64,000 nucleotides of DNA from Thermoplasmata archaeon (GCA_028864975.1 JAGWLG010000004.1:32001-96000), one strand, 5' to 3'. Shown: positions 1,956-26,551, counted from the stretch's first letter. Notes: a model not told the origin generated them from the letters alone. Numbers and translations: made by a program.

Positions 1956-2224
1956 GGGCCGCGTCAGAGCTTTCTGCCGTAAGAGCGTGCCCGTTACCGG
2001 ACCGTTCCAAAGCGAAGAGTGGTTGGGGTTCGGGCGACTGATGTGGGGCAACTCGTCTAAGAGCTGAACCCACCTGCCCGACAGCAGCTCCACCGGTAAT
2101 GGGGGATGCGACAAACCACCTCGCATAGGGCCACCGGGCTCTCGACGTTGTGGAACGGTGACGAACGCAGAGAGAGCTCGTCCCCGGCCGCGCGGTTCAA
2201 ATCCTTCTCCCTCATGACTACCGC

Positions 2225-2542
2225 GTGGCGTGTCTCGCCTGTGGCTCCCAGAGCGCCGGCTACCGGAGTAGCTGCGGAGCCTTTCTATGCCAGAAGTGCG
2301 CTTCGCGCCCCTGCCCCTCCTGTGGAGAGAAGTACGATACCCTGATGCTCAACTACCTGCCGGCCCAGCCGGAGACCGCCCTTCCCGTCCCGACCGGTTC
2401 GCGCTTCGCCCCCCCTCCTCCTCCGCAACCCCAGGTCATCTACCGTGAGACCATCGTCGTCAAGATCCCGTGCAAGCACTGCGGCTATCTGAACCTCAAC
2501 ACTGACCCGCGGTGCTCGAGCTGCGGGGCACCATCAAAGTAG
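2225..2542 (+). CDS. Small multi-zinc-ribbon protein
   Basis: CLAC, CQKC, CPSC, CKHC and CSSC motifs around a Pro-rich linker. Confidence 0.7.
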   Translation: MACLACGSQSAGYRSSCGAFLCQKCASRPCPSCGEKYDTLMLNYLPAQPETALPVPTGSRFAPPPPPQPQVIYRETIVVKIPCKHCGYLNLNTDPRCSSCGAPSK

Positions 2543-2882
2543 TAGGACGCTTGCACCCCGTCGAGGTCTCCGACCTTTCACCTCTGCCAGTGGACCGCCC
2601 AAGATGCGGAGGGACCGAAGCACACCACGACGGGCCTGACGCGGAAGTCCACCGGAGGCCAGGACCGAGGAACGGGAGCTTCGTCGCGCTGGCCATGGGG
2701 AACCAGGCGGAGCACTCGCTCCCGACATTCTCGGCGAGCTCGGGTCCTCGAGGAGAAGTTGAGAGGCCGTGGTTCATTGCCCCCAAACGAGAGGTCATTC
2801 GTGTCGGGGGGCAAGACGCATTCCTCCCTCCTCAGCGCCCCTCGAAGCGAAGATTGAAGTCAAGCCGTACGGTGTCGACCCT

Positions 2883-5342
2883 GTGGCGGTTCCACGGCAA
2901 GCGGTTCTCGGTCGTATACTCTCTCTGACCTTGGTACCCCTGCTCGTCCTCGGACTAGGGCTGGCGGCGGTCACCGCGACCAGCGGGCCACCCAAGAGTG
3001 GCTGCGTACTCCCCTCGCATTGCTCGTCGGAGCCATCCCGTGCCGGTGGCCGTCCTACGGGTTCGGCGCGAGCGCTTGCGCCTTCGGCCCCAGGACTGTC
3101 CATCCCGTCGGTGCAGGGGCCACCGCACGGTCGTGGCTCGACGGGCGACCCCCCAGGTCGCGCGAACGAAGCGGGGCCCTCAAGCGACCACGGGGTCGTC
3201 CTACCAGGCCCCGAGGTCGTCACCCTTACAGGTCCTCAACAGGTCTCCACCTGGGGCGCCACCGATACCTACGTCGCGGTGCTGTCGGGGCCTCTGGTGC
3301 CTTCGAACTATACGTGGGACATCGACGAGCAGGCCGCCGGCGGCGTTGTCGAGCACACCACGGTGCCTACCGTCGATGTCACTTGGACCGCGGCGATGTG
3401 CTACAGCGGCGTCGTCAACACCATCTTCGCCGTGAGCGTCACCGTCTCGTTCCAATCGACCCCTCTGATCCCCAACCCTCGAGGGGGTTACGACTCTATG
3501 ACCGCAGAGCTCGTTGTCTACCCACCCACGTCCCCCCCAACGGGTTGCTACTCCTCTCCCCCTCCCTATCTCCTGTACAGCCTGTCAAGTTGGGGGGATC
3601 GGCCGCAGGTCTTCCTCCACCCGACCTCGTACGCTAACACGACGAGTCATGTATGGCTCAACACGACCGCGGGAGCCACGGGGGCCTCCGTGACCGTCTG
3701 CGATCTTCCCGTGACCACATGCAGCCCCTCGTACACAAACATGACGGGCAACTTCGACTTCCTCGCGCAGTTCTACCCTAGTTCCGGGTGCTGTGGCTTT
3801 GGCCCGGGATGGACCGGCATCACGGTCGTCATGGACTACGTTCCCTTCCAGTCGGTGGGGAAGTTCATGGTGCAGTTCTTCAATCTTGCCGACGGTCTCC
3901 AGGCCTCAGCCACCGCCTCTCCACTGCAGGGGGTCCTTCCTCTCCCCGTATCGTTCGGGTCCAGCGCTCGGGGCGGTCTCCCGCCCTACACGTTCAACTG
4001 GACCTTTGGTGACGGGACGTCCGTCTACTTCACGCAGAATCCTAACCACACGTTCACCTCGACAGGTACCTTCCATGCGTGGCTCAACGTGACCGATTCG
4101 CTGGGTTTCTCCGTGAGCGTTGCGCTTCCCGCGATCGCGGTGGTCAGTCCCCTGAGCGCGGTCATCGTCCCTAGCTCCGTCGCCGGCCCCCCGCCCTTCA
4201 CAGTGAGCTTGGCAGCTTCCCTATCCGGAGGTCTGCCCCCCTTCCAGTACTCATGGGACCTGGGCAACGGTGCGACGGCGAGCGGGCCCTCGACGGCGGC
4301 CACCTACGTCCAACCGGGCGCCTACCTGGTCTCGCTCACGGTCTCCGATGCCCTCAGCGAGCTTGCCACGACCTACGCGATCCTGCGGGCCGACGGGGCA
4401 CCGACGTTCCCGGTGACATTCCAGGAGTCTGGACTTCCCTCGGGCGTCCAGTGGGGCGTGGCCGTAGATGGGGACCTGCCCCTGAGCACGGGCCCTTCGC
4501 TCACCGTGGACCTCCCCAATGCGACCTATGTCTACGGAGCCGTGGCAGCCGCGCGCTATCTCGCCCAGCCCGCCACGGGCATCTTCACCGTTCAGGGCAG
4601 CCCGGTCTCGGTTCACGTCTCCTTCGTGGCCTCTCCTGCGCCCTCGTTCCTCCTCGATTTTCTGTCGTCGGACCTACCACGAGGAGTCAACTGGACGGTG
4701 CACTTGGCCCACGGTGGTGTGCCCCTCGCGTCGGGAGGATGCGCCTGCGCGTCCGTCCCCTTCGTGGTCCCGAACGGAGCCTACGGTTTCACGGTTGGGG
4801 GCGCGTCGGGCTTCAAGTCCAACCGGACCGTGGGGAACGCTACGATTCAGGGAGCTGCCGACTTTGTCCTGATCGGCTGGGACCGTCTCTATCCCGTCGC
4901 ATTCAACGAAACGGGACTTCCGGCCTCCACGAATTGGTCGGTCCAGCTGGGTGGGGACAGGTGGAGCACGACCACGAACAGCGTGACCTTTGAGGCCGTC
5001 AATGGGACGTACAACTTCACGGTCCTCGGACCCCAGGGGTACCGAGCCTCTCCAGGTTCGGGCAGTCTGTCCGTACATGGGCCCGCCTTGGTTTCGATCA
5101 CTTTCTCCTCGTCGTCCTCAACCTGGGCCGGCTTAGCGGGCTTCTTCGCCCGCAATCCGTGGCTGGTGGTGGGCGCGGGCGCAAGTACGATCGCAGTCGC
5201 GCTGGGGATATGGCGATGGAAGAAGCCCCCATCCCGCCGGAGGACCGCGGCCACGAAGGGCGAGCCGTCGTCGGAGCCCTCGGGAGGATCTGGTCCATCC
5301 GATCCTAACTCTAGCACCCACGGCGGCACCAGCGTGAGCTGA
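2883..5342 (+). CDS. Membrane-anchored cell-surface protein with PKD domains and thermopsin-associated beta repeats
   Basis: Signal-like hydrophobic N-terminus; two PKD motifs (FNWTFGDG, YSWDLGNG); three repeats of type VTFQESGLPSGVQWGV; C-terminal TM plus basic residues. Start moved to GTG 2883 (track 2769). Confidence 0.8.
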   Translation: MAVPRQAVLGRILSLTLVPLLVLGLGLAAVTATSGPPKSGCVLPSHCSSEPSRAGGRPTGSARALAPSAPGLSIPSVQGPPHGRGSTGDPPGRANEAGPSSDHGVVLPGPEVVTLTGPQQVSTWGATDTYVAVLSGPLVPSNYTWDIDEQAAGGVVEHTTVPTVDVTWTAAMCYSGVVNTIFAVSVTVSFQSTPLIPNPRGGYDSMTAELVVYPPTSPPTGCYSSPPPYLLYSLSSWGDRPQVFLHPTSYANTTSHVWLNTTAGATGASVTVCDLPVTTCSPSYTNMTGNFDFLAQFYPSSGCCGFGPGWTGITVVMDYVPFQSVGKFMVQFFNLADGLQASATASPLQGVLPLPVSFGSSARGGLPPYTFNWTFGDGTSVYFTQNPNHTFTSTGTFHAWLNVTDSLGFSVSVALPAIAVVSPLSAVIVPSSVAGPPPFTVSLAASLSGGLPPFQYSWDLGNGATASGPSTAATYVQPGAYLVSLTVSDALSELATTYAILRADGAPTFPVTFQESGLPSGVQWGVAVDGDLPLSTGPSLTVDLPNATYVYGAVAAARYLAQPATGIFTVQGSPVSVHVSFVASPAPSFLLDFLSSDLPRGVNWTVHLAHGGVPLASGGCACASVPFVVPNGAYGFTVGGASGFKSNRTVGNATIQGAADFVLIGWDRLYPVAFNETGLPASTNWSVQLGGDRWSTTTNSVTFEAVNGTYNFTVLGPQGYRASPGSGSLSVHGPALVSITFSSSSSTWAGLAGFFARNPWLVVGAGASTIAVALGIWRWKKPPSRRRTAATKGEPSSEPSGGSGPSDPNSSTHGGTSVS

Positions 5343-5706
5343 CTTCGCCGTCGTTACGAGCGACCTCGCAGACGGTAACGAAAGCAGACGGAGGACTGCA
5401 GCTCAAGTGCAGAAGGGCCCGCTGAGACCTCTACTTACGACTGCGAGTCATCTCGAGCCATCACGTGAACTCATGGACCCCTCGACGACCAGGTCGGCGT
5501 TCCATCACCCTACGGGGAGCTCCCGTCGGCGAGTAGCCCGATGTAGATCCCGGCGGGGTGCCTGCCCTTATCGACGAAGCGCGGGTCGGAGCCCAGGATG
5601 GCACTGGGTAGTCGTGGTCGAAAAGCCGTGAGGGGTGCTCATGGAGTCCCGGCGACCCATCCGCTCCCAGTTTCGGGCGCGCTCTCTCAGGCCGCTCAGC
5701 GTACAG

Positions 5707-5713
5707 TTTTATA
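5707..5713 (+). promoter_or_regulatory. TATA box for rps12-rps7-fusA
   Basis: TTTTATA about 40 nt upstream of the rps12 ATG in a GC-rich background. Confidence 0.55.
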
Positions 5714-5752
5714 GGGAACCTATGTGGCCCGACCCCCCCAAAGGACCCCTCG

Positions 5753-6193
5753 ATGTCACCCCCGCCACCCTCCGGCACCTTCACGGCCGGCAAGCTCCGG
5801 CACCTTCGGCAGCGACGGCGCTGGTCCGACCGGTACTACAAGCGTCGGGAGCTCCATCTCAAGGAGCGGTCGGACCCTCTGGAGGGCGCTCCCCAGGGCC
5901 GAGGGATCGTGATCGAGAAGGTCGGGGTCGAGGCGAAGCAGCCCAACTCGGCCATCCGCAAGTGCGTCAAGGTCCAGCTCATCAAGAACGGCCGTCAGGT
6001 GACAGCCTTCGCGGTGGGGGACGGCGCGATCAACTTCATCGACGAACACGACGAGGTCCTCGTCGAGGGCATCGGAGGGCGCATGGGAAGGTCCTACGGC
6101 GATATCCCCGGGGTCCGCTACAAGGTCATCAAGGTCAACAACGTCTCGTTGGACGAGCTCGTTCGGGGCCGTAAGGAGAAGCCGCAGCGATGA
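5753..6193 (+). CDS. rps12: 30S ribosomal protein uS12 (archaeal type)
   Basis: [19 protein letters not shown] and [10 protein letters not shown]. Confidence 0.98.
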
Positions 6194-12342: not shown

Positions 12343-13092
12343 TTGCCCAGGTCCATCACGTACAGTGTCGTGGACTCGACCCAGGAGGTCGCCCTCCGTC
12401 TGGCCCGGGAAGGGGCCCCGCACGGGACCTCGGTCTCGGCGGAGACGCAGCTCCTGGGGCGCGGGCGCGAGGGGCGTGCCTGGGCCTCGCCCAAGGGAGG
12501 GCTCTACGCCTCCGTCGTGCTCCGCCCGGAGGCCTCCGCCTTCCCCTTGCTCTCGCTCTCCGCAGGGCTCGAGCTGCGGGAGCTCCTCGCCGAGCGTGCG
12601 CCCAAGGCCAAGGTCATGATCAAGTGGCCGAACGATCTGCTGCTCGTTCCCCGGGACGCTCCGGGGTCGGCCCGCAAGGTCGGTGGGGTGCTGACGGACA
12701 TCATCACCCGTCCCGGGATCACCACCGTCGCGGTCGTCGGGGTGGGGCTGAACGTGGACGTCGCCGTGTCCGACCTCCCCCCCGATCTCCAAGGACAGGT
12801 GGCGTCGCTGCGGGAGTTCACTCCCGGGCCCGTCTCGGTCCGAGACCTGCAGGAGCCCGTGCTCCATGCGGTGGTCCGAGCGTGCCAACGCGTCTCGACC
12901 TCGGAGGGTCGTGCGAGCCTGCCTCAGGCCGTTGCGAAGCACCTCTTCGGGGTGGGGAGCCCGGTCGCGCTCGAAGGGGCCCGAGGGACCTTCCGGGGCG
13001 TGGGCCCCGGTGGCGAGGCGCTCGTCGAGCCCGAGGGCGGGGGCCCGCCGCGCGCGCTGCATGCCGGCGAGCTCAAGATCGAGGTGCCATGA
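12343..13092 (+). CDS. birA: Biotin-protein ligase (no N-terminal HTH)
   Basis: GRGREGRAWASP, IKWPNDL, RKVGGVL, VGVGLNV. Confidence 0.93.
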   Translation: MPRSITYSVVDSTQEVALRLAREGAPHGTSVSAETQLLGRGREGRAWASPKGGLYASVVLRPEASAFPLLSLSAGLELRELLAERAPKAKVMIKWPNDLLLVPRDAPGSARKVGGVLTDIITRPGITTVAVVGVGLNVDVAVSDLPPDLQGQVASLREFTPGPVSVRDLQEPVLHAVVRACQRVSTSEGRASLPQAVAKHLFGVGSPVALEGARGTFRGVGPGGEALVEPEGGGPPRALHAGELKIEVP

Positions 13093-14726
13093 CGACCACG
13101 AGCCGTCCGCCCACGGGCTCCGACGGGGTCGGGAAGGGGGGCGCAGCGGCCCCGCCTGGTCCCTCTCGTTCCCACCGCCCCTCCCCGCGCGAAAGGTTCG
13201 CCCGAGAGAAGGCCCGTGTCCGAGAAGGGGCGGGGAAGGACCGACAGGAGAAGCTCCGCGCCCAGGGGAGGCTGGCAGCGCGCGAGCGGTTGGAGACCCT
13301 GTTCGACCCCGGGACCTTCGTCGAGATCGACCCGTTCGTCTCCCACCGCATCACTTCCTTCGGGCTCTCTGAGCGACGGATCCCGGGCGACGGGGTCGTC
13401 ACAGGATGGGGCAAGATCGAGGGGCGGGTCGTGGCGGCCTTCGCGCAGGACCCGACGGTCTTCGGCGGGGCGCTGGGGGAAGCGCACGCCAGCAAGATCG
13501 TGAAGATCATGGAGTTCGCGGCGAAGGTCGGAGCCCCGGTCGTAGGCCTGAACGACTCCGGGGGCGCGAGGATCCAGGAGGGGGTCGTCTCCCTCGGGGG
13601 CTACGGGGAGGTCTTCCACCGCAACGTGCTCTATTCCGGGGTCGTCCCCCAGGTCTCGGTCATCCTCGGAGCCTGCGCGGGGGGAGCGGTCTACTCCCCG
13701 GCCATGACGGACTTCATCATCATGGCCGAAGGGGCGAGCCACATGTTCATCACCGGACCGGACGTGATCCGCACGGTCACGGGCGAGGAGGTCACCCACG
13801 AACAACTGGGGGGAGCCCATACGCACGCGTCGAAGAGCGGCGTGGCCCACCTGGTCGCTCCGGGGGAGAAGGAGGCGCTCGCCCTCACTCGACGGCTCCT
13901 CTCGTACCTTCCGTCGAACAACCTCGAGGACCCGCCCTCGTCCCCGCCTCGCTCGCCTCCGCCCTCCGCTGCGGGAGAGCTCGACGCCCTCGTTCCCGCC
14001 GAGGCCGACCGGCCCTACGATATGCACGAGGTCATCGGGCGGGTCGTCGACCCCGAGAGCACGCTCGAGATCTTCCCGTCCTGGGCCCCGAACATGATCA
14101 CCGAGCTCGCCCGGCTCGACGGTCACCCGGTCGGGGTCGTCGCGAACCAGCCCCAGGTCCTCGCCGGTTGTCTCGACATCGAGGCCTCCGAGAAAGGTGC
14201 ACGCTTCGTTCGCACCTGCGACGCCTTCAACTTGCCGCTCTTGACCTTCGTGGACGTTCCGGGGTTCCTCCCCGGCACGCAGCAGGAGTACGGCGGGATC
14301 ATCCGTCACGGCGCGAAGCTCCTCTTCGCGTTCTCCGAGGCGACGGTCCCCAAGCTCACGGTGATCCCCCGCAAGGCCTACGGCGGGGCCTACGATGTCA
14401 TGTGCTCGAAGCACATCGGTGGGGACTACAACGTGGCCTGGCCGCAGGCGGAGATCGCGGTCATGGGCGCGGAGGGCGCGGTGAACATCCTCTTCCGCCG
14501 AGAGCTCGACAAAGCGCCGGAGGGGGAGCGCTCTTCCCTGCGCAAGACGCTCACCGACGAGTACGCGGCCGAGTTCCTCAACCCCTACCTTGCCGCCGAA
14601 CGGGGCTACCTCGACGACGTCATCGACCCGAGCGAGACCCGCAAGAGGCTCCTGGAGGCCTTCGAGGCGCTGCGGGGCAAACGGCAGGACCGTCCCCCGA
14701 AGAAGCACGGGAACATCCCGCTGTGA
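13089..14726 (+). CDS. Acyl-CoA carboxyltransferase beta subunit (PccB/MmdA/transcarboxylase 12S-like)
   Basis: DSGGARIQEG, GACAGGAVYSPAMTD, VDVPGFLPG, RKAYGGAY, KKHGNIPL; start reset to ATG 13089. Confidence 0.95.
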   Translation: MTTTSRPPTGSDGVGKGGAAAPPGPSRSHRPSPRERFAREKARVREGAGKDRQEKLRAQGRLAARERLETLFDPGTFVEIDPFVSHRITSFGLSERRIPGDGVVTGWGKIEGRVVAAFAQDPTVFGGALGEAHASKIVKIMEFAAKVGAPVVGLNDSGGARIQEGVVSLGGYGEVFHRNVLYSGVVPQVSVILGACAGGAVYSPAMTDFIIMAEGASHMFITGPDVIRTVTGEEVTHEQLGGAHTHASKSGVAHLVAPGEKEALALTRRLLSYLPSNNLEDPPSSPPRSPPPSAAGELDALVPAEADRPYDMHEVIGRVVDPESTLEIFPSWAPNMITELARLDGHPVGVVANQPQVLAGCLDIEASEKGARFVRTCDAFNLPLLTFVDVPGFLPGTQQEYGGIIRHGAKLLFAFSEATVPKLTVIPRKAYGGAYDVMCSKHIGGDYNVAWPQAEIAVMGAEGAVNILFRRELDKAPEGERSSLRKTLTDEYAAEFLNPYLAAERGYLDDVIDPSETRKRLLEAFEALRGKRQDRPPKKHGNIPL

Positions 14727-14757
14727 TCCCGCCGGGCCTTCGCCACAGAGGAGGAGG

Positions 14758-15195
14758 CTACTCCGAGCGAGCGGAGGTGGACCCCTGGACCAGCTTTCGG
14801 ACCGTGCCCAGGACCACCGTCGCCCGCTGAAGGAACTCCCTGGCGCGACGAGGGTCCCGCACGTCGCGCGTCGGGCCGACCCCCTTCTGGCTGCCATAGA
14901 GGGCCGCTTCGCGGCGGTCTGCCAGAGCATGGGAGAGTTCCGCCATCTCAGGGATCGCCGACCGGAACCAGGCTGGGAACTTGTCGCGGTGGTCCTCGAG
15001 CACGAACCCGACGTCGTGGAACTTCGGGTAGTCGATCCCCGCCGACCGCAGGGCGGACTTCAACGAAAGCTCGACGGCCTCTTGGGAGAACCGAACGACA
15101 TCGGGGGTACGACGGCGGCCGAGGGCCGCGCGCGCCGCACGGACCCGCTCGTCGGCGCGAACCAGGAACTCCTCAGGGCCATCCTCGGGATTCAC
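14758..15195 (-). CDS. HEPN-domain protein (module 2)
   Basis: SQEAVELSLKSAL, PKFHDV, RREAALYG; GTGA overlap with the MNT stop. Confidence 0.85.
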   Translation of the reverse strand: MNPEDGPEEFLVRADERVRAARAALGRRRTPDVVRFSQEAVELSLKSALRSAGIDYPKFHDVGFVLEDHRDKFPAWFRSAIPEMAELSHALADRREAALYGSQKGVGPTRDVRDPRRAREFLQRATVVLGTVRKLVQGSTSARSE

Positions 15196-15929
15196 GAGGC
15201 GAGCACCTCCGCGAAGACCGAGCCCCTCGGCACTTCCCAGTAGCGCGCTCCCGTGGCGTCGCGCAACCGCCGGGCATGGAGGTCTCGGAGCCGGTGGCGG
15301 ACCTGCTCGAAGCGGCGAGAGAGCAACCGGTCCCGGTCCAGGATGACGATGGCGTCCTCGGCGAGGTCGAGCCAGAGGTAGCGGGGCGCGTCCACCTCCG
15401 ACGGCGAGAGCAAGATGACGGAGGGTGGATGGCACTCACGTAGGGCGGACCACTGACGAGCGAGCAGGGGCCCGAGATCGGCGTGCAGGGAACGGAGCTC
15501 GTCGGGGCGCTCGGAAGGGGGTCCCTGCAATCCCTCGACGACCCCGAGAAGGTCGACATCGCTCTGGGCGCCCTCCTCGCCCCGCGCGACAGAGCCGAAG
15601 AGGGCCAGCCCACGTAACCGGGCGCCGTACGTGCGCAGGAGCCATCCAACGGCGACTTGGAGAGGAGGGAGGGACCGATGTCCGACCAGGCGTTCCCCCC
15701 AGTCGCGCTCCATCCGGGACAGGGCCGCCAGGGGGTCGTGGAGGACGTGGACCCCCCTGCCGAGGGAGAACGCCCAGCCTCGTGCGGCGAGGCGAGAGAG
15801 AAGGAGGTTCGTCCACGTCTCGCTCGAACGGAGAACCTCACGCGCATCGCCGTTCGAGAAGGGTCTCGGGCCGAACGCCCCTTGGAGTTGAGCGTAGGCA
15901 CGAGCTGCCGATGGGGACAACCATCTCAT
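15192..15929 (-). CDS. wHTH-MNT fusion (module 2)
   Basis: N-terminal wHTH resembling AbiEi N-domains; FGSVARGEEGAQSDVD; start ATG 15929 (track over-extends to 17219). Confidence 0.85.
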   Translation of the reverse strand: MRWLSPSAARAYAQLQGAFGPRPFSNGDAREVLRSSETWTNLLLSRLAARGWAFSLGRGVHVLHDPLAALSRMERDWGERLVGHRSLPPLQVAVGWLLRTYGARLRGLALFGSVARGEEGAQSDVDLLGVVEGLQGPPSERPDELRSLHADLGPLLARQWSALRECHPPSVILLSPSEVDAPRYLWLDLAEDAIVILDRDRLLSRRFEQVRHRLRDLHARRLRDATGARYWEVPRGSVFAEVLAS

Positions 15930-15933
15930 TTCA

Positions 15934-15959
15934 GATATTATATCATATTTGGCTATAAA
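15934..15959 (-). promoter_or_regulatory. TATA box plus short palindrome of module 2
   Basis: TTTATA (15954-15959, minus) about 25 nt before the ATG; GATAT-T-ATATC at 15934-15944; AT-rich island. Confidence 0.55.
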
Positions 15960-16064
15960 CACGTTCGCGAGCCCTGAGCGGGCGGTCACCGTCAGGGCGC
16001 CGCGGCCCGACCCGAATGTTGGGAGGAAAGGAGATAACCTGACGCAGCACGGACATCTCGCGGC

Positions 16065-17615
16065 ATGGTCGAGCTCACCGAGACCGTCCTTCGCGACGGG
16101 CACCAGTCGCTCATCGCGACCAGGATGCGGACCCGGGACATGCTTCCCGCGGTCGAGCGCCTGGACGCGGTCGGTTACCGCTCGCTCGAGGTCTGGGGCG
16201 GCGCGACCTTCGACGTCTGCCTGCGCTATCTCCACGAGGACCCCTGGGAGCGCCTGCGGGAGATCAAGCGGCGAGCGAAGCGGACGCCGCTCCAGATGCT
16301 CCTCCGGGGGCAGAACCTGGTGGGCTATCGCCACTACCCGGACGACGTCGTCGAGCGCTTCTGCGCGAGGGCCGCGAAGGAGGGGGTCGACCTCTTCCGC
16401 GTCTTCGACGCGCTCAACGACCCCAGGAACATGCGCACGGCGGTCCGAGCGATCAAGAAGGCCGGGGGACGAGTGCAGGGGACCATCTGCTACACCGAAA
16501 GCCCGGTGCACACCCAGGAGGCGTTCGTGTCCCTGGGCCGCGAGCTCGCCGAAATGGGTTCGGACGAGCTCTGCATCAAGGACATGGGCGGGTTCATGCC
16601 GCCCCACGCGGCAGCGGCGCTCGTCTCCGCACTGAAGAAGGAGATCGGGCTCCCGATCGCGGTCCATACGCACTCCTCCAGCGGCATGGCCCTCATGGCC
16701 CTCCTCGCGAGCGCCGAGGCCGGAGCGACCTCCCTCGACACGGCGCTCTCGCCTTTCGGAGGAGGGACCTCCCAGCCCCCGACCGAGTCCGTCGTCGGAG
16801 GCCTGCGTGGGACGCCGTTCGCCACCCGGCTCTCCCTGGAGCCGCTCGCCGACCTCGCCGACTACTTCCAGGGGGTGCTGGAGCGCTACCGCCCCATGCT
16901 GGAGTTCCGTTCGCTCCAGGTGGACCCTCAGGTCCTGCTCCACCAGGTCCCGGGGGGGATGCTCTCGAACCTCTTCTCGCAGCTGAGGGAACAGGACGCC
17001 CTCGGGCGCCTCCCTGAGGTGCTGAAGGAGGTGCCGCGGGTGCGGGAGGACCTGGGCTACCCTCCACTCGTGACGCCCACGAGCCAGATCGTGGGGATCC
17101 AGGCGGTCTTCAACGTCCTCTTGGGGCAGCGCTACAAGGAGATCACGAAAGAGGTCCGGGACTACGTGAAGGGCCTCTACGGACACGCTCCCGGTCCGAT
17201 CTCCTCCGACCTTCAGCACCGGGTCCTCGACGGGGCGGCGCCCCTCGACGGACGACCGGCGGACCTCCTCGCGCCCGAGTACGAGAGGATACGGAGCGAG
17301 CTCTCGGCGCTCCTCCCGGCGGCCACGGAGGAGGAGGTCCTCTCCTACGCTATCTTCCCCCAGGTGTTCAAGGAGTATCTCGTGGGTCGGTCGAAGGGGT
17401 ACACCGCCGAGATGCTGACCGTGGCCGCCGCGGGAGTGCTAGCGGCCCTCCGAGCTCCTACCGTCGCGGCCGCGCCTCCCTCCACGGCGCTCTCCTCAAC
17501 CTCGCCGACCTCCTCCGTCGCCGCTCCGTCCTCCGGGTGGGCGCTCGCGGGTCGGATACGAAGCATGGATCCCCATCGGTGGCAAGATGCGTATACAGCT
17601 CGTCGTCGACGGTAA
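16065..17615 (+). CDS. Pyruvate/oxaloacetate carboxyltransferase subunit (PycB/OadA/transcarboxylase 5S-like), no biotinyl domain
   Basis: LRDGHQSL, EVWGGATFD, CIKDMGG, HTH, HQVPGGMLSNL, GYPPLVTPTSQIVG. Confidence 0.93.
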   Translation: MVELTETVLRDGHQSLIATRMRTRDMLPAVERLDAVGYRSLEVWGGATFDVCLRYLHEDPWERLREIKRRAKRTPLQMLLRGQNLVGYRHYPDDVVERFCARAAKEGVDLFRVFDALNDPRNMRTAVRAIKKAGGRVQGTICYTESPVHTQEAFVSLGRELAEMGSDELCIKDMGGFMPPHAAAALVSALKKEIGLPIAVHTHSSSGMALMALLASAEAGATSLDTALSPFGGGTSQPPTESVVGGLRGTPFATRLSLEPLADLADYFQGVLERYRPMLEFRSLQVDPQVLLHQVPGGMLSNLFSQLREQDALGRLPEVLKEVPRVREDLGYPPLVTPTSQIVGIQAVFNVLLGQRYKEITKEVRDYVKGLYGHAPGPISSDLQHRVLDGAAPLDGRPADLLAPEYERIRSELSALLPAATEEEVLSYAIFPQVFKEYLVGRSKGYTAEMLTVAAAGVLAALRAPTVAAAPPSTALSSTSPTSSVAAPSSGWALAGRIRSMDPHRWQDAYTARRRR

Positions 17616-18153
17616 GAGGCAGGAGCTCGAGGTCGACCTCGCCAAGGGCGAGGTGCGCCTCGGTGGGCGGAGCGTGCCGTTCCACGTGGTCGACGACGCG
17701 GGCGGGCGGGTCGAGGTTGATGTGGGGGGGGAGAAGCATGTCCTCGAAGGTTGGCCGGACGGGGCACCCTCGCCTCCGACGAACACGCTCGTCGTGAACC
17801 GGGAGCTCCATCGTGTCGAAGGCGTTCACGCGGAGACCGAGCGCGTCCTCACCCCCACCCTATCCTCCCAGGAGAGAAAGACCCCGGTCCCCCCGACACG
17901 CGCTGCCGCGTCCGGCCCGTCCTCGGACGGCCCCGGCGTCCCGATCGCGCCGCCGATGCCGGGGAAGGTCCTCGAGGTCCGGGTGAAAGAGGGCGAGGAG
18001 GTGGTCCCAGGACAGACCCTGCTCGTCCTTGAGGCGATGAAGATGCGGAACGAGATCCAGAGCCCCGGCGCGGGGAAGGTCCAAGGGCTGTCGGTCGCGC
18101 CCGGGGCGATGGTGAAGGCGAAGCAGGTGCTGCTCCGGATCGTTCCCCCGTAG
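17587..18153 (+). CDS. Biotin carboxyl carrier protein (1.3S-like)
   Basis: APMPGKV and LEAMKMRNEI biotinylation motif. Confidence 0.95.
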   Translation: MRIQLVVDGKRQELEVDLAKGEVRLGGRSVPFHVVDDAGGRVEVDVGGEKHVLEGWPDGAPSPPTNTLVVNRELHRVEGVHAETERVLTPTLSSQERKTPVPPTRAAASGPSSDGPGVPIAPPMPGKVLEVRVKEGEEVVPGQTLLVLEAMKMRNEIQSPGAGKVQGLSVAPGAMVKAKQVLLRIVPP

Positions 18154-18264
18154 GGCCTGTCGGCCCCGCTCACGCGACCCCGCGTGGTCAATACCCGCAG
18201 GTGAGCTTTCGTGAAGGCTCGAGCAACCCTTGAAAGGGAGGTTCGGCCTATCAGAAACAACGCC

Positions 18265-18606
18265 ATGACGAAGGCCATGGGGGGACGACCCGATCCGAAC
18301 GCGGTCCAAGAGGCCATCCGTCGGATCGTGGGGGCCGCGCACCCCGTTCGCATCATCCTCTTCGGCTCGGCCGCTCGCGGGGAGATGAGGGACGACAGCG
18401 ACCTCGATATGCTGGTGGTCTGCAAGCCGCCCCTGGACCGGGTCGAAATGACGAGCCGTATCTACGAGGGACTCCTGGGGGTCGAGTTCCCGGTCGATGT
18501 TCTTGTCGTGACCGAGGAGTCCCTTGCGAAGACCCGGGACAACCCGGGTTTCATCTACGGCACGGCGTTGGAAGAGGGGAGGGAGATCTATCTCGCCGGA
18601 GCCTGA
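18265..18606 (+). CDS. Minimal nucleotidyltransferase (module 3)
   Basis: LFGSAARGEMRDDSDLD; PVDVLV. Confidence 0.9.
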   Translation: MTKAMGGRPDPNAVQEAIRRIVGAAHPVRIILFGSAARGEMRDDSDLDMLVVCKPPLDRVEMTSRIYEGLLGVEFPVDVLVVTEESLAKTRDNPGFIYGTALEEGREIYLAGA

Positions 18607-18982
18607 GTACCTCGGAGCCCCCACAGAGTGGCTGACCAGGGCTCGGAGCAACCTTGAGCTCGCGCACCGGGCGGTGGGTCCCGGGGTGTTGTGGGAGGAT
18701 CTCGCCTTCGAGGCCCAGCAGGCCGCCGAGAAGGCTCTCAAGGGCGTTCTGATCGCCCGAGGCGGCTCCTTCCGAAAGACGCACGACATCGGCGTCCTGC
18801 TTACTCTTCTCCGGAATGCCGGTGTCGAAGTGTCGCACGACCTCGATGCTTCGGTCCATCTAAGCCAGTACGCGTTCGCAAGCCGTTACCCGTCCGAGGT
18901 GCCTCTCACGGAAGCAAACTTCCGTGAGGCGCTGCAACTCGCCGAAGCCGTGGTGGCGTGGTGCGAGACGCAGGTGGCGTAG
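18590..18982 (+). CDS. HEPN-domain protein (module 3); start uncertain (ATC 18590 or TTG 18524)
   Basis: EWLTRARSNL, AQQAAEKALKG, KTHDI, SRYP. Confidence 0.85.
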   Translation: MSPEPEYLGAPTEWLTRARSNLELAHRAVGPGVLWEDLAFEAQQAAEKALKGVLIARGGSFRKTHDIGVLLTLLRNAGVEVSHDLDASVHLSQYAFASRYPSEVPLTEANFREALQLAEAVVAWCETQVA

Positions 18983-20566: not shown

Positions 20567-23500
20567 TCAGAGATGCGCGCCGCAGTGCGGGCAGTCGCGG
20601 GCGCCCCGTGCGACCTTGCCGATGCAAACCGGGCAGACCTCGGCCGCCGACCCTGAGGGAGGGGGCTCAGTCCCCTCCTGGAGCGGGACGCTGGCCGGCT
20701 CGGCCCCTCCTTCGGACCCTACACGGTCGCTCTGGGCGTCGGTCGACGACCCGCTCGCGGGTGCCGGATACGGCGAGGACGGCGCGGCCGGTCCTCCCAC
20801 TTGGACTCCCTGCAGAGAAGTAGCCGACAAGGCGGCGGTCGGCCCCACCGGGGGAGCGATCATGTCCATCGGTCCGGGGGGTGGGGGGCCTGCGGGAGGT
20901 CCCTCCCCCGGTTCGTAACCTGGGCCGATCACGGAAGGGAAGGGGGCCAGGTCCGAAGGGGGCGGGGCGACGGCGAGCCGGGACCGCCCGCGTCGCCGAA
21001 GCACGAGAAGGGCCACGATCGCCGCCACGACCAGGGCTACCGTCACGAGGAAGAGGGGGCTCGAGAGCACCCCCACCATCCTGGAGAACACGGAACCTGG
21101 CGTGGTGGCCGCCGAGACGTTCACCCAGAGGGTCCGGTTGAACTCCTCCCCCAACGCATCGCTCATCCGGGCCGTGGCCTGGAACGTCCCGGTCCGGTTG
21201 AACGTGTGCGTCGGGTCGAGGGCTTGAGAGGGGCCCCCTCCATCCGAGAACGTCCAGAGGACCGCGTACGGGGCGAGCCCCCCGCTGGGGATCGCGTCGA
21301 GGTGGACCGTGAGCGGTGCGTTCCCCGAGGTGCGGTCCGCGCTGACGTTTCCTCTCAGCGGACCCACCACCGAGACGACCAGGGTCGTGGTCGCGCTCTG
21401 GCGCGAGGGCGTGGAGGAGTCGTTCACGTACAGGCGCACCACGTAGCTTCCGCGGGTGGGGTAGGTGTGCGTCGGAGAAGCGAGCGCCGAGACGTTCCCG
21501 TCGCCGAAGCGCCAGGAGTAGACGTACGGGAGGTTCCCCCCCGAGACGCCGGCCTTGAAGTCGACGGCGAGCGGTGGGAGGCCTGCGGGGGGGGTCGCTC
21601 GGGGGTTCAGCGTCAGCGGTCCCTTCGACACCGCGATGACGACGGGGGCGAAGGACGCCGCGCCATTGAGGTCGGTCGCACGTAGCGTCGCGGTGAAGTT
21701 CCCGGACCGGTTGTAGACGTGGGTCGGGTCCGGCGCCGAGGAGAGCGGAGCGCCGTCCCCGAAGCTCCAGCGGTAGAGGTAGGGACCTGTGCCCCCCCTC
21801 GCGCCGCCCGAGAACTGGACGGCGAGGGGAAGGACCCCTGACGTGGGCGATGCCGAGGCCATCGCGGTCAGGGAGCTGGCGCTCGGAGAGACCGAGAGGA
21901 AGAGGCTCGACGCGTTGGTCTTGCCCACCGCGTCCGTGACGGTGAGCGTCGCTCGGAAGGTCCCGGAGCCGTTGTAGATGTGCTGGGGAGCGGTGGCGCC
22001 GGACGGGGTCGAGAGGTCGCCGAAGTCCCAGCTCCAACGCAAGGGCCCCGTGCCTCCCACGACGGTCGAGCTGAAGGCGACCGAGAGCGGGGCGGTCCCG
22101 CTCGTGGGGGTCGCCGTTGCGCTGACCAACGGGAGCGGTGCCACCACCACGCGCGCGAGGGCGGTGGCGCTGAATCCCGCCGTGTCGTTGACATAGAGCC
22201 GGGCGTAGAACGTGACCGGGACCGTTCCCGTGACCACGTACGGGTGGCTGACGTTCGCTCCCATCGCGGGGGCACTCCCGTCCCCAAAGACCCAGGTGTA
22301 GGTGTAGGGGGGTGTGCCCCCCACACCGAGACCCTGGAAGATCACGGGGATCCCCGAGTCGGTGGGAGAGTTGGTCGCGGCCGCGGAGGCGGAGAGGATC
22401 CCCCCGCCGGCCGCGGGACAGGTGCCGCTCGCTCCTCCCACGTCCACCTGGACCATCGGGCTCTCGCCCGCCATCGGGACGGGAGCGGTCGAGTCCGTCG
22501 CCGTCGCGTAGGCGCAGTCGACCCCCACCGCCTGGTAGGTGTGGCTGGGCGAGGTCGCCCCGGTCGAGGAGATGTTCCCTTCGAACGTTCCGTCACCCCA
22601 GTACATCGTCCAGGCGAAGGGCCCTGTGCCTCCCGTGGGCGTCGCCGAGAACGGGACCAACTGGCCCACCGTCGGGCTGGGGGAGCTTGTGGTCAGGGTG
22701 ACCCCGAACGTGGACGTCCCCACGGAGATGAGCACGGGGGCGGAGGTCGTCGAGTTGCCCGAACTGTCGAAAGCGACGACCCAGGCGAGGTAGGAACCTG
22801 GGATGAGGTAGGTGTGGGTCGCCAGGGTCCCCGGCTGGGTCGTCGCATTCCCGTCCCCGAACAGGAAGGTGTAGGTCGGATAGGTGCCCGTGCCCCCGCT
22901 GGCCGACGCCGCGAACGTGACCGGGAGCGGAGCGCTTCCGCTCTGCGGACCGAGGGAGAGGGCGACCTCGAACCCGCCTCGCGGGGGAACGGGTCCTCCT
23001 CGCGCCAGGTCCGGCACCGCGTAGGCGGCCTTCGGGGTCCCGATCCCCGTGATCGGGTCCCACCCGGGGGTCGCCGAGTACCCGTTGTTCCCGGAGGTGA
23101 TGTCATGGAAATCGGTCGAGTAGCTCGTGGAACGGAGGATGGCGTAGAGCGTGGGGTCGAGCAGTCCGATGCCTCCTCCATGGATCTGGTCCGCGGTGGC
23201 CGCGAGGCCCGCCCACATGGGGGAGGCGTCGGAGGTCCCTTCCACGAGCCAGGTCTGGCCCCCTTCGACCATCTCGAGGTAGCTCCCGGCCGTGATCCCG
23301 ACGTCCGGGACCCCGCGCAGCCCGTTGTTGACGACGCCGAGGCCGCGTTGGTACCAGGGCTGGGGTTGAGGCGACCATCCTCCCCCGGCCCCTCCCCCGT
23401 TGTTGCAGCTGCTGCCGGAGAGGTTCCCGCTCCAGGCGGTCTCGCTGCTATAGCTCGTGCCGCTCACGGTCAGGACGGTCCCCCCCACGCCGGTCGCTGC

Positions 23501-24772
23501 GTCGTCGGAGGCCGGATAGTCCGTGGAGGCGGTCTGCGTCCCGTCCGCGGCTCCGCAGTCGCCGCTCGCGGCGAAGACACTGATCCCCTCGACCGCGGCT
23601 GCCTGGAGGATAGGATGCAGGATGGCGTAGGTGCCGTCGGTGGAGGCGTTGCAGCTCGAGGAGCAAGCAGCCCCACCGTAGACCCCAACGTCCGGCTCGC
23701 CCCAGGAGAGCGAGATGACGTCCGCCACGTGGTACTCGACCAGGAAGTTCACGGCCTGGTAGAGCCCGAACCCCGAATCGGGGGAGAAGACGACGTCCAG
23801 ATTCGCCCCCTCGGCCATGACGTGCGACCATTCCATGTCCAGGGCGGTCTCGATCCCCCACCCGCTCGAGGTGCTCGCGTTCGGGTCCCGCGTGTCCGGG
23901 TCCGGGTAGAGGAACGAGAGCGAGGAGCTCGGAAGCGCGAAGTTCGCGTTGAAGGAGGCGTAGTCGCTCGCGAGCTGGGCCTGGGTCTCGCTCGAGTCGT
24001 AGTCGTCCACGACGGCGACCGTGCGACCGGCGCCGGTCTCGCTCTTCCCGATCAGCGTGGAGTCCCCGTAGGCGGATTGCACTTCGCAGGGAGTGTACCC
24101 AAATGTCCCCGTCGCGCAGGAAGCCCCAACCTCTGGGGAGCGCGGGCTTGAGAGAGAGAACGGACCGTTCACCATCTCGAGAGGTCGTGCATCCAGAGCG
24201 TTCGTGAGGCCGAAGCTCCCCGACACGGAGAGGTCAGAGGGCAGGCTCGGGGCCGTGCTCGGTCCGTAGACGACACGAGGACCCACCTGCCAGAGCTCGA
24301 GGGAGGTGTGGAACGCGGCGGACATCTCGGCCGAGGTGCCCGAGAGCCCCAGGGTCAGCCGGTTCGACGAAGGCTCGACCGTGAGGCCGTAGGAGGAGAA
24401 GTACGCCGAGGCCCGGTCGTAGGCGGAAGAGGAGGGCGAGAACTGGGTCGCGAACTCCGTTGGGGAGAGGAAGGTACGGTAGAGAGGGGAGTTCGGGGTC
24501 GACTCCTCTTGCACGAGCCGCGAAAGCTCCTGTGGGTCCCTCGTGGGGAGAGCGATGCCGGCATGCAGCGGGGCGGAACCCGTGAGCTTCCCGAGGTCCC
24601 TCGCCGCGGGGAAGATAGCCGGGATCGCGGCCCCCACGGCGTGGAGCATGGTGGGTGAGCCTCCGGCGATGGAGGTGACCGGAGCCGCGGCCGGGGGGAT
24701 CGCCGTCACCGACAAAAGCGCGAGGACGAGAACCGCGATGGGGAGCCCCCGATGTTGAGGACCCTTGGGCAC
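20567..24772 (-). CDS. Sedolisin (S53) protease with prodomain, about 7 PKD domains, TM and C-terminal double zinc ribbon
   Basis: ETALD, SGDCG, GTSDASP, DITSGNN, GWDPITGIGTP; repeated W/F-x-F/W-GDG; CPVC...CPHC tail. Confidence 0.92.
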   Translation of the reverse strand: MPKGPQHRGLPIAVLVLALLSVTAIPPAAAPVTSIAGGSPTMLHAVGAAIPAIFPAARDLGKLTGSAPLHAGIALPTRDPQELSRLVQEESTPNSPLYRTFLSPTEFATQFSPSSSAYDRASAYFSSYGLTVEPSSNRLTLGLSGTSAEMSAAFHTSLELWQVGPRVVYGPSTAPSLPSDLSVSGSFGLTNALDARPLEMVNGPFSLSSPRSPEVGASCATGTFGYTPCEVQSAYGDSTLIGKSETGAGRTVAVVDDYDSSETQAQLASDYASFNANFALPSSSLSFLYPDPDTRDPNASTSSGWGIETALDMEWSHVMAEGANLDVVFSPDSGFGLYQAVNFLVEYHVADVISLSWGEPDVGVYGGAACSSSCNASTDGTYAILHPILQAAAVEGISVFAASGDCGAADGTQTASTDYPASDDAATGVGGTVLTVSGTSYSSETAWSGNLSGSSCNNGGGAGGGWSPQPQPWYQRGLGVVNNGLRGVPDVGITAGSYLEMVEGGQTWLVEGTSDASPMWAGLAATADQIHGGGIGLLDPTLYAILRSTSYSTDFHDITSGNNGYSATPGWDPITGIGTPKAAYAVPDLARGGPVPPRGGFEVALSLGPQSGSAPLPVTFAASASGGTGTYPTYTFLFGDGNATTQPGTLATHTYLIPGSYLAWVVAFDSSGNSTTSAPVLISVGTSTFGVTLTTSSPSPTVGQLVPFSATPTGGTGPFAWTMYWGDGTFEGNISSTGATSPSHTYQAVGVDCAYATATDSTAPVPMAGESPMVQVDVGGASGTCPAAGGGILSASAAATNSPTDSGIPVIFQGLGVGGTPPYTYTWVFGDGSAPAMGANVSHPYVVTGTVPVTFYARLYVNDTAGFSATALARVVVAPLPLVSATATPTSGTAPLSVAFSSTVVGGTGPLRWSWDFGDLSTPSGATAPQHIYNGSGTFRATLTVTDAVGKTNASSLFLSVSPSASSLTAMASASPTSGVLPLAVQFSGGARGGTGPYLYRWSFGDGAPLSSAPDPTHVYNRSGNFTATLRATDLNGAASFAPVVIAVSKGPLTLNPRATPPAGLPPLAVDFKAGVSGGNLPYVYSWRFGDGNVSALASPTHTYPTRGSYVVRLYVNDSSTPSRQSATTTLVVSVVGPLRGNVSADRTSGNAPLTVHLDAIPSGGLAPYAVLWTFSDGGGPSQALDPTHTFNRTGTFQATARMSDALGEEFNRTLWVNVSAATTPGSVFSRMVGVLSSPLFLVTVALVVAAIVALLVLRRRGRSRLAVAPPPSDLAPFPSVIGPGYEPGEGPPAGPPPPGPMDMIAPPVGPTAALSATSLQGVQVGGPAAPSSPYPAPASGSSTDAQSDRVGSEGGAEPASVPLQEGTEPPPSGSAAEVCPVCIGKVARGARDCPHCGAHL

Positions 24773-24916: not shown

Positions 24917-26551
24917 CTAACTCTCGATGGACTCGCGGGCCAGGTCGGGTCGAAGGTTCTCCCCCCTTGACCCGCGGGTCGACCGTTGAGGCTTCCGACG
25001 ACCCACGGCTCGGGGGCGGGAGACTCGCCGCCTCGCGATCACGAGGAAGCTGGTGCCGGTCAAGATGGAGACTGCCGCGAGGACCAGAGCCACCTCGTTG
25101 AAGAAGGTCCCAAGGTACCACGGCAGTGGGGGGGGTGGGTAGGCGATCAGCAGGGTGGCCGGGGGTGGGCTGCTGGAAGAGCACGCGCTCGAGCATCCTC
25201 CGACCGCCGCGGCGAAGACGACCCACGTCGGTCCCCCGATGGCGCCCTTCAAGTCCGAGAGCGAGGAGCCGTAGGGGGAACTCCCTCCAAGCCTGAGCGG
25301 CGTGCGCGTGGGGGGCCCTGCGGTGGTGGCGCCGGGGGGCACGACCCAACGTAGGATACCACCCCCCTGAGGGACGACCTCGATCGCGGTGAGGCCGCCT
25401 CCCGCCTCGCTGCCCACCGCGCTAGCCGTGGGGTTCAGGCTGGGCTGGGGCGATGAGGGGAGGTCGGGGAGGGCCACCGGACCCTGGATCGCGGACCCCG
25501 GGAGTCCGTAGACCGCACCCCACATGGAGAGGTAGGCCCCGACCTCCGGAGAGGTGAGGAGGGCGGGCGTTCCCGAGAGGTTCACGGGCTGACCTGGAAC
25601 GAAGGTTCCCGGTGCACCGTTCGTTCCGGGATCGTAGGAGTACGGGACCGCCCAGTACCAGGATTGGACCGGATAGCAGCTCTCGACGCCCGGATTCCAA
25701 AGGGCGACGAGCCCGATCGAGGAGCCGCTCGCGAAGACCGAGGCGGAGGTGCTCGCCCAAGGAGGGTAGGGGCAGTTGCGAGCGAACGACGGGGTTACGT
25801 TCTGGGAAGGGGACCAGGTCGTTCCTCCGTCCGCCGAGATGGTCACATTGTCCGAGGTCATCCCGTAGGAGGTGCCGAAGTAGGGCCCTCCCTCGTAGTT
25901 GAACGCGACGGCTTCGAGGGACCCCTGGACCGCGACCGAGAGGCTCGAGAAAGGTGAGGCATTCTGGGCGAGGAGGCGAGGGAGACCCCAAGTCTGTCCT
26001 TCGTCCGCGCTCGACCATGCCTCCACCCGGTAGGGAGCATGGGCCGGGGCCGCACCGATGCTCGTGCTTTGGTACAACGGCACGGGCGACGTTTGTAATG
26101 TTGCCATGGCGAGAAGAAGCTGTGCCCCGTCCGCAGCTAAGGACAGGTCCCCCCACCTCCAGGGGTAGGGAGAGTCCGAACCCGGGATGGTGGGATGGGC
26201 CGGAAGCTCCGACCAATGCCCCCCCCTGTCGAGGCTCCGATACAGGCTGACGTTCGACCAGGCTTGACCCGTCGCCTTGACGGGAAGCAACGCCGCGAAC
26301 ACCGCGGACGTGGTATCGGCGAAGACCACTTCTTCGGAGGGGGGAAGAACGGTGGAAACGACGCTCGGCGCGAACGCGTTGTTCACGAGCTGGTACCCCG
26401 CATCGGCCGCGAGGGCGACCCCGACGGCCAGAAGCACCACGCCCGCGACACGCAGCCCCCTGACCTGCTCTCCACGATGCGTCAGGGGTGGGACGACGAC
26501 AGGAGCATCGTCCGGTCCTCCGAAGGAGGGTGGGTCGGCCGCGGAGCTCAC
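24917..26551 (-). CDS. Membrane-anchored Asp-box (sialidase-like/BNR) beta-propeller protein
   Basis: SLDRGGHW, SADEGQTW, SADGGTTW; hydrophobic segments near both ends. Confidence 0.7.
   Translation of the reverse strand: MSSAADPPSFGGPDDAPVVVPPLTHRGEQVRGLRVAGVVLLAVGVALAADAGYQLVNNAFAPSVVSTVLPPSEEVVFADTTSAVFAALLPVKATGQAWSNVSLYRSLDRGGHWSELPAHPTIPGSDSPYPWRWGDLSLAADGAQLLLAMATLQTSPVPLYQSTSIGAAPAHAPYRVEAWSSADEGQTWGLPRLLAQNASPFSSLSVAVQGSLEAVAFNYEGGPYFGTSYGMTSDNVTISADGGTTWSPSQNVTPSFARNCPYPPWASTSASVFASGSSIGLVALWNPGVESCYPVQSWYWAVPYSYDPGTNGAPGTFVPGQPVNLSGTPALLTSPEVGAYLSMWGAVYGLPGSAIQGPVALPDLPSSPQPSLNPTASAVGSEAGGGLTAIEVVPQGGGILRWVVPPGATTAGPPTRTPLRLGGSSPYGSSLSDLKGAIGGPTWVVFAAAVGGCSSACSSSSPPPATLLIAYPPPPLPWYLGTFFNEVALVLAAVSILTGTSFLVIARRRVSRPRAVGRRKPQRSTRGSRGENLRPDLARESIES

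Follow-up and report, generated by a model that had tools for sequence, protein, structure and literature searches.

The closest described counterpart of the genes considered here is the transcarboxylase of Propionibacterium freudenreichii subsp. shermanii, in which two carboxyltransferases (12S and 5S) share a small separate biotin carrier (1.3S), with neither a biotin carboxylase (BC) nor a pump subunit taking part. The 1.3S protein is about 123 residues long, and its N-terminal part serves assembly. Here, we describe a cluster of four genes (positions 12343–18153) in a 64,000-nt stretch of DNA from a Thermoplasmata archaeon (G000:C104:32001-96000 in our numbering; referred to as the window, with cluster positions counted from its start). 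The cluster encodes a biotin-protein ligase (BirA), a 12S-like and a 5S-like carboxyltransferase, and a free biotin carboxyl carrier protein (BCCP). With a probability of roughly 0.7, we read it as encoding a putative ATP-independent methylmalonyl-CoA:pyruvate transcarboxylase (EC 2.1.3.1-like) that comes with its own biotin ligase and would be the only biotin enzyme of the organism.

An initial sequence-only reading of the window knew of no description of such an enzyme in archaea, but the gene set is not unprecedented there. Imachi et al. (2020; PMC7015854) read the same set in Asgard archaea, consisting of MmdA-type and PycB-type carboxyltransferases, a BCCP, and a biotin ligase, as a methylmalonyl-CoA transcarboxylase in propionate metabolism. 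The component logic is the same in both cases, and both assignments were inferred from genes; the present case differs in the phylum (Thermoplasmatota) and in the family-wide absence counts, the in situ gene swap, and the complex model presented later. Our literature search on Thermoplasmata/Thermoplasmatota found no description of a transcarboxylase. Some of the relatives are metagenome-assembled genomes (MAGs) of the Lutacidiplasmatales, for which a propionyl-CoA carboxylase was annotated by Sheridan et al. (2022; PMC9287336). Transcarboxylases were already known from bacteria and, by inference, from Asgard archaea since 2020, and the gain made here is incremental.

Cluster components and their described relatives

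The cluster comprises the following genes, all on one strand, as the sequence-only reading had described:

12343–13092, + strand: BirA, a group-I biotin-protein ligase without DNA-binding domain (TIGR00121, PF03099); the TTG start is uncertain
13089–14726, + strand: acyl-CoA carboxyltransferase of the 12S/PccB/MmdA type (PF01039, TIGR01117)
16065–17615, + strand: keto-acid carboxyltransferase of the 5S/PycB/OadA type, 516 residues, without biotinyl domain (PF00682, PF02436, PRK09282)
17587–18153, + strand: free biotin carboxyl carrier, 188 residues (PF00364, 2.9e-16; EAMKM motif)

BirA scores 122.5 bits against TIGR00121, above the cut-off of 83.1, and matches PF03099 with 1.6e-15; the GRGRxGRxW and KWPND motifs are readable, and the genome holds a single copy of the gene. 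The first ATG of the 12S-like gene, at 13089, overlaps the BirA stop codon as ATGA. The 12S-like protein matches PF01039 (9e-195) and TIGR01117 (1e-233), in the latter case with 777 bits, which is under the mmdA subfamily cut-off of 999. Its best match in the PDB is Streptomyces coelicolor PccB (682 bits), and P. shermanii 12S (1ON3) scores 579 bits. The AGGAVYSPA and GGAYDVM motifs are retained, including the equivalent of PccB Asp422, a residue that we take, from established work on PccB, to favor propionyl-CoA. No other Carboxyl_trans gene occurs in the genome, and all four cluster genes are single-copy.

The 5S-like protein matches PRK09282 with 707 bits; the PycB, OadA, and 5S models cover only residues 1–451, and PF00364 is absent. 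No variation occurs among 23 relatives at R10, D11, Q14, K172, M174, H201, and H203, which belong to the R-D-G-H-Q, K-D-M, and H-x-H elements, and the metal/carbamyl-lysine site (D11, K172, H201, and H203) is intact. The carrier consists of an N-terminal eight-strand β-domain (approximately residues 1–80), a Pro/Ala linker, and a biotinyl domain with the EAMKM motif, which is invariant in 24 carrier relatives. In the carrier model, the biotinyl domain gives a Z score of 14.0 against the BCCP of Pyrococcus horikoshii and of 12.4 against transcarboxylase 1.3S (1DD2).

The carrier ATG lies 29 nt upstream of the 5S stop codon in the +1 frame, meaning that the two genes overlap in different frames. 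A GGAGGTG Shine–Dalgarno sequence for the carrier is embedded in the 5S tail, and the 29-nt overlap is kept in most of the 36 junctions displayed. Given its own Shine–Dalgarno sequence and ATG, together with the conserved overlap, the carrier is a real, separate, translationally coupled subunit and not part of a frameshifted OadA. Fusion of carrier and 5S never occurs in the Thermoplasmata 12S-linked clade, in which the 5S proteins have 494–519 residues, compared with 566–625 residues for BC-linked PycB.

The cluster thus resembles the P. shermanii transcarboxylase in combining two carboxyltransferases with a small separate carrier and no BC or pump, in the matches of its parts (1ON3, 579 bits; 1RQB, 444 bits; 1DD2, Z 12.4), and, by model, in having a carrier whose N-terminal part would serve assembly. 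It differs in its longer carrier with the eight-strand N-terminal domain, in having BirA as its first gene, in its archaeal host, in a 5S-like protein that is nearer to PycB and OadA, and in that the archaeal activity is a predicted one.

Propionyl-CoA carboxylase contains, in PccB, a close homologue of the 12S-like protein (682 bits), and both systems would make methylmalonyl-CoA ahead of epimerase and mutase. Unlike that carboxylase, the cluster has no BC, the carboxyl donor would be oxaloacetate, by way of the 5S-like protein, and not ATP plus bicarbonate, and a real propionyl-CoA carboxylase cassette was found only in one genome of the family (G010; see later). The Na+-translocating OadABG and MmdABCD systems likewise combine α-type carboxyltransferases with a biotin carrier, and the 5S-like protein scores well against OadA (2NX9, 488 bits; TIGR01108, 671 bits); in contrast, no β subunit (PF03977) was found in the source genome or its family, and the carrier of the cluster is not fused to the α subunit. 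PycAB, as found in methanogens and in Methylobacillus, provides the best PDB match for the 5S-like protein (5KS8 β, 495 bits). Among the 80 closest loci, which were collected from one contig scan and include no Asgard locus, the nearest relatives outside the Thermoplasmata are methanogen PycB proteins (57% identity). PycB, however, has 566–625 residues with a fused BCCP and adjoins PycA (the BC), whereas here a 5S protein of 516 residues goes with a separate carrier and no BC.

A tree was built from 56 5S-type domains labeled by gene context, without 5S sequences from Propionibacterium, Syntrophobacter, or Asgard archaea. The 12S-linked 5S proteins of Thermoplasmata form one clade (Shimodaira–Hasegawa-like approximate likelihood ratio test, SH-aLRT, 100) on a long stem branch (0.6). 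This clade stands apart from the archaeal PycB/OadA group, which holds the other Thermoplasmata homologues, and is nearer to sequences from Chloroflexota and Bacillota. The likeness to the Propionibacterium set that the sequence-only reading had proposed extends to the makeup of components and not to orthology of the 5S protein, which scores 524 bits against an actinobacterial 5S cut-off of 827 and is nearer to PycB and OadA. For this reason, the functional assignment rests on which components are present and absent, and not on orthology.

BirA, 12S, 5S, and carrier genes are contiguous and co-oriented in approximately 43 Thermoplasmata species. As a separate observation, the order 12S–5S–carrier also occurs in Anaerolineae-type Chloroflexota (L090 and L071), once with OadB directly downstream (L090), and in a distant Thermoplasmata genome (G032, locus L106) that has a BC elsewhere.

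Biotin carboxylase, pump subunit, and pathway genes

PF02785 (Biotin_carb_C) was used as the marker for BC, PF03977 (OAD_beta) for the pump subunit OadB, and PF02786 (CPSase_L_D2) for ATP-grasp proteins. The source genome is a MAG of 3.6 Mb with approximately 68% GC and a completeness of 89.6%. In this genome, neither PF02785 nor PF03977 gave a match, and PF02786 matched only CarB and one protein of 437 residues that is PurT by Pfam, none of them a BC. When BC and OadB proteins of other Thermoplasmata were used as queries against the source genome, they recovered CarB only (approximately 25% identity) or nothing. The sequence-only reading had noted that BC and OadB are missing from the window and had suggested a genome-wide search for accC/pycA and oadB; none of these genes was found in the source genome, and the absence thus extends beyond the window.

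The comparison was widened to 24 genomes of the same family, including one that is 100% complete and two that consist of five contigs. OadB was found in 0 of these 24 genomes and BC in a single one (G010), where it lies within a classical carboxylase cassette. A PYC_OADA domain is present in 21 of the 24, and one further genome (G020) has the cluster with its 5S gene cut by a contig end. The BC domain is also absent from five additional long-read MAGs, including the complete 2.18-Mb chromosome OY970259.1. Since the 100%-complete, five-contig, and long-read genomes also lack BC, the pattern does not come from incomplete assembly. As positive controls, BC was found in 13 of 14 reference genomes, and OAD_beta gave clear matches in two genomes of the same class (G031 and G039; E 1e-136 to 1e-139). 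In these and a third genome from other Thermoplasmata families, the 5S homologue adjoins OadB (G031 and G039) or BC (G040); the searches recovered these partners, which shows that the method detects them when they are present.

Two mutase-family genes are encoded in the source genome. The copy at G000:C38:2243-4447 (− strand) carries the Phe/Gln residues of isobutyryl-CoA mutase (RMFSGF and EYIAQKEF), and the copy at G000:C104:103440-105170 (+ strand) the Tyr/Arg residues of methylmalonyl-CoA mutase (RQYSGF and EYAARGTY). The latter lies on the same contig as the window, approximately 53 kb downstream of the cluster and 7.6 kb past the end of the window. It is directly followed by methylmalonyl-CoA epimerase (139 bits; cut-off 115) and then by enolase and ribosomal protein S2. 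Thus, the mutase and epimerase that the sequence-only reading had proposed to look for are both found on the contig of the window. A stand-alone B12-binding subunit and succinyl-CoA synthetase are encoded in the source genome as well. All 24 family genomes contain the mutase family, as does G032, another genome with 12S–5S–carrier genes, whereas none of the genomes that pair a 5S homologue with OadB or BC contains it.

The most informative comparison is offered by the single family genome in which BC was found. In G010 (locus L108, G010:C134:1-12000, positions 1793–6089), an inverted PccB–BC–BCCP cassette, a classical propionyl-CoA carboxylase, replaces 12S, 5S, and carrier between the same EF2/BirA and RtcB genes. 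The G010 carrier has SMKM instead of AMKM and a similar N-terminal β-domain. Two biotin enzymes occupying one slot beside the same ligase are expected if both make methylmalonyl-CoA from propionyl-CoA.

Predicted assembly, activity, and alternatives

The interaction between the 5S-like protein and carrier residues 1–110 was addressed by complex modeling. The model scored 0.83 in three runs, compared with 0.01 for the best control; in a calibration, 58 of 80 solved complexes attained this mark, compared with 2 of 110 mismatched pairs. The runs have at least 77% of contacts in common, and the predicted local distance difference test (pLDDT) value of the partner is at least 75. In the model, the β-strands of the carrier surround 5S residues 450–465, a conserved helix just after the catalytic domain, which supports an arrangement in which the N-terminal domain of the carrier would hold the 5S tail helix. 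This arrangement, with an eight-strand barrel around a helix, is reminiscent of the BT and PT domains of propionyl-CoA carboxylase (PCC) and pyruvate carboxylase (PC).

The N-terminal domain of the carrier may accordingly be a split BT-like domain, an idea that the fold search could not confirm. Folded alone, this domain has a mean pLDDT of 62, and with this low-pLDDT fold VIA-align returned only generic small up-and-down β-barrels (Z at most 5.6), with no BT or PT domain listed; when the whole-carrier model was used, biotinyl and lipoyl domains filled the list. When the carrier profile was compared with PycB/OadA proteins of the fused type, the alignable part started at profile positions of approximately 48–71 and comprised just the final hairpin and the biotinyl domain, indicating that the first six or so strands are specific to free carriers. 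When the 5S tail was aligned locally with the tail at the C-terminus of the G010 BC, the score was 28, compared with 24 ± 4 for shuffled sequences, that is, no detectable similarity.

We infer the activity, its substrates, its direction, and the docking of the 12S-like protein from these components. BirA would biotinylate the lysine of the EAMKM motif on the 188-residue carrier. Carboxyl exchange between (S)-methylmalonyl-CoA/propionyl-CoA and the biotin on the carrier would then be the task of the 12S-like protein, and exchange between biotin and oxaloacetate/pyruvate that of the 5S-like protein. According to the model, the N-terminal β-domain of the carrier would wrap tail helix 450–465 and so clamp the carrier to the 5S-like protein; the genes of these two proteins are translationally coupled. 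The likely physiological direction is from propionyl-CoA and oxaloacetate to methylmalonyl-CoA and pyruvate. Epimerase and the B12-dependent mutase would convert the product to succinyl-CoA, and the tricarboxylic acid cycle would regenerate oxaloacetate. In this way, propionyl-CoA from odd-chain or branched substrates could be oxidized without the ATP cost of propionyl-CoA carboxylase.

Of the alternatives, the one that survives best, albeit as an improbable one, is a transcarboxylase acting on other substrates, for example, malonyl-CoA/acetyl-CoA on the 12S side, or 2-oxobutyrate or another 2-oxoacid on the 5S side. The 12S-like protein does stay under the mmdA cut-off (777 versus 999 bits), the 5S-like protein stays under every equivalog cut-off, and the 5S clade sits on a long stem. 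These observations are opposed by the best PDB match of the 12S-like protein, the propionyl-CoA-specific S. coelicolor PccB, whose Asp422 has its equivalent in the retained GGAYDVM motif, and by the invariance of the seven pyruvate-site residues of the 5S-like protein. The tight co-occurrence with methylmalonyl-CoA mutase and epimerase and the in situ PccB-type replacement in G010 likewise argue for methylmalonyl-CoA.

Somewhat less probable still is that the cluster encodes an oxaloacetate and/or methylmalonyl-CoA decarboxylase, with carboxybiotin discharged spontaneously or by an unrecognized partner other than OadB. Such an enzyme would fit the closeness of the 5S-like protein to OadA, the existence of bacterial 12S–5S–BCCP clusters with OadB, and the presence of a small two-transmembrane protein, encoded convergently just 3' of the carrier, in 14 relatives. 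Yet, neither the source genome nor any of the 24 family genomes has OAD_beta, although two other Thermoplasmata families give clear matches to it, and no conserved membrane gene occurs in or beside the cluster across the loci of the relatives. The two-transmembrane protein is encoded on the other strand, has no homologue in the source genome, and is unlike a β subunit with its 9–11 transmembrane segments. To our knowledge, β-independent discharge of carboxybiotin has no precedent among biotin decarboxylases, which weighs against this alternative.

Ordinary ATP-dependent propionyl-CoA and/or pyruvate carboxylases, with a BC missed through incompleteness or divergence, are very unlikely, even if this is how the order has been annotated (Sheridan et al. 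2022; PMC9287336) and the source genome is 89.6% complete, given that BC is absent from that genome, 23 of 24 family genomes, and a complete chromosome although the control search finds it in 13 of 14 reference genomes, that the ATP-grasp proteins are only CarB and PurT, and that the sole family genome with a BC has a different cassette replacing 5S.

Several points weigh against a methylmalonyl-CoA:pyruvate transcarboxylase. The assignment of this predicted activity depends on absence calls, the source genome is incomplete, and the absence call for the complete chromosome (G041) concerns BC. A search of the source genome, at 89.6% completeness, yielded no biotin transporter BioY (PF02632), although a biotin ligase and a biotin enzyme are encoded there. 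PycB and OadA (5KS8, 495 bits; 2NX9, 488 bits) are matched better by the 5S-like protein than is characterized 5S (1RQB, 444 bits over residues 2–474); the protein is under every equivalog cut-off, including that of the actinobacterial 5S model PRK12330 (524 versus 827 bits), and has 671 bits for the OadA model TIGR01108. In the source genome, the operon is interrupted by an insertion on the opposite strand, and the score of the complex model may partly reflect likeness to solved fused PycB and PC chains. Finally, OadB accompanies 12S, 5S, and BCCP genes at several bacterial loci (L067, L070, L075, L084, and L090), meaning that the triad alone does not define a transcarboxylase and that the absence counts carry the argument.

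A broader possibility, which we consider doubtful but worth stating, is that the predicted transcarboxylase and the three-subunit acyl-CoA carboxylase of archaea are modular relatives. Carriers of one kind, with an eight-strand β-domain and a biotinyl domain, would clamp a tail helix at the C-terminus of the biotin-loading partner, whether this is BC, as in G010, or the keto-acid carboxyltransferase, as in the rest of the family. ATP-dependent carboxylase and ATP-free transcarboxylase could then give rise to each other when cassettes are exchanged at a single locus, with the helix-in-barrel clamp as the split counterpart of the BT and PT domains of PCC and PC.

Should the activity be confirmed, the cluster would provide the first biochemically tractable archaeal transcarboxylase, and the published metabolic reconstruction of a widespread order of soil and mine drainage would have to be corrected. 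Propionyl-CoA derived from branched amino acids and odd-chain fatty acids would then enter the mutase pathway by oxaloacetate-driven transfer in place of an ATP-consuming carboxylase. One ATP would be saved per turn, a gain of importance to organisms that face acid stress and live on little energy. The swap in G010 and the predicted tail-in-barrel tether offer handles on module exchange among biotin enzymes. The value of the assignment would lie in a corrected annotation, a subunit architecture that can be put to the test, and a cassette swap found in nature, and not in a new principle.

Insertions, neighboring genes, and occurrence

The sequence-only reading had given the content of 12343–18153 as the four cluster genes, which are there, and had overlooked a gene pair on the opposite strand between the 12S and 5S genes. 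This pair, the spacer next to it, and a second pair farther downstream are as follows:

14758–15435, − strand: HEPN gene (PF05168, 3.4e-13); the true start is probably internal
15192–15929, − strand: minimal nucleotidyltransferase (MNT-like), the partner of the HEPN protein (PF01909, 6.2e-5; GSxxRGE..DxD motif)
15930–16064, no strand: spacer between the divergent nucleotidyltransferase and 5S genes, AT-rich with a TATA-like start, as read from the sequence
18211–18982, + strand: second pair, nucleotidyltransferase (18211–18606; PF01909, 4e-10) and HEPN (18524–18982; PF05168, 2.1e-24), between carrier and RtcB and outside the enzyme

In genomes of the same genus, the gap between 12S and 5S is 41–233 nt, and RtcB directly follows the carrier, which indicates that both HEPN/nucleotidyltransferase pairs are insertions specific to the source genome. 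Both borders of the first insertion are bridged by contigs from runs of two studies, although the best-matching samples may include the source sample. The spacer at 15930–16064 probably supplies a promoter for the 5S and carrier genes after the insertion. Both pairs are toxin–antitoxin-like, and the first one splits the operon.

The conserved surroundings of the cluster consist of riboflavin genes, Ogt, or EF2 upstream and of RtcB, an M50 peptidase, and a CDP-alcohol transferase downstream. The closest public relatives of the window are all MAGs labeled "Thermoplasmata archaeon," from soil, peat, and wetlands, and the stretch itself is present in mine-drainage and soil metagenomes from two studies. 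No RNA data are among the listed runs containing the stretch, and the matching contigs attest to its presence only.

The two-transmembrane protein encoded convergently just 3' of the carrier in 14 relatives (e.g., L023:10018-10395, − strand) has approximately 115–160 residues and an acidic tail with a conserved (E/D)PF(E/D)DPV(I/E)EAD motif. Pfam gives no match for this protein, the source genome encodes no homologue, and the gene is on the opposite strand; it was therefore ruled out as a pump subunit.

Farther downstream in the window, positions 20567–24772 (− strand) encode a protein of 1401 residues that combines six PKD domains with a pro-kumamolisin activation domain and is probably a secreted acid protease of the sedolisin type. 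This gene and its neighbor at 24917–26551 sit between the RtcB and M50 peptidase genes, which are adjacent in the relatives.

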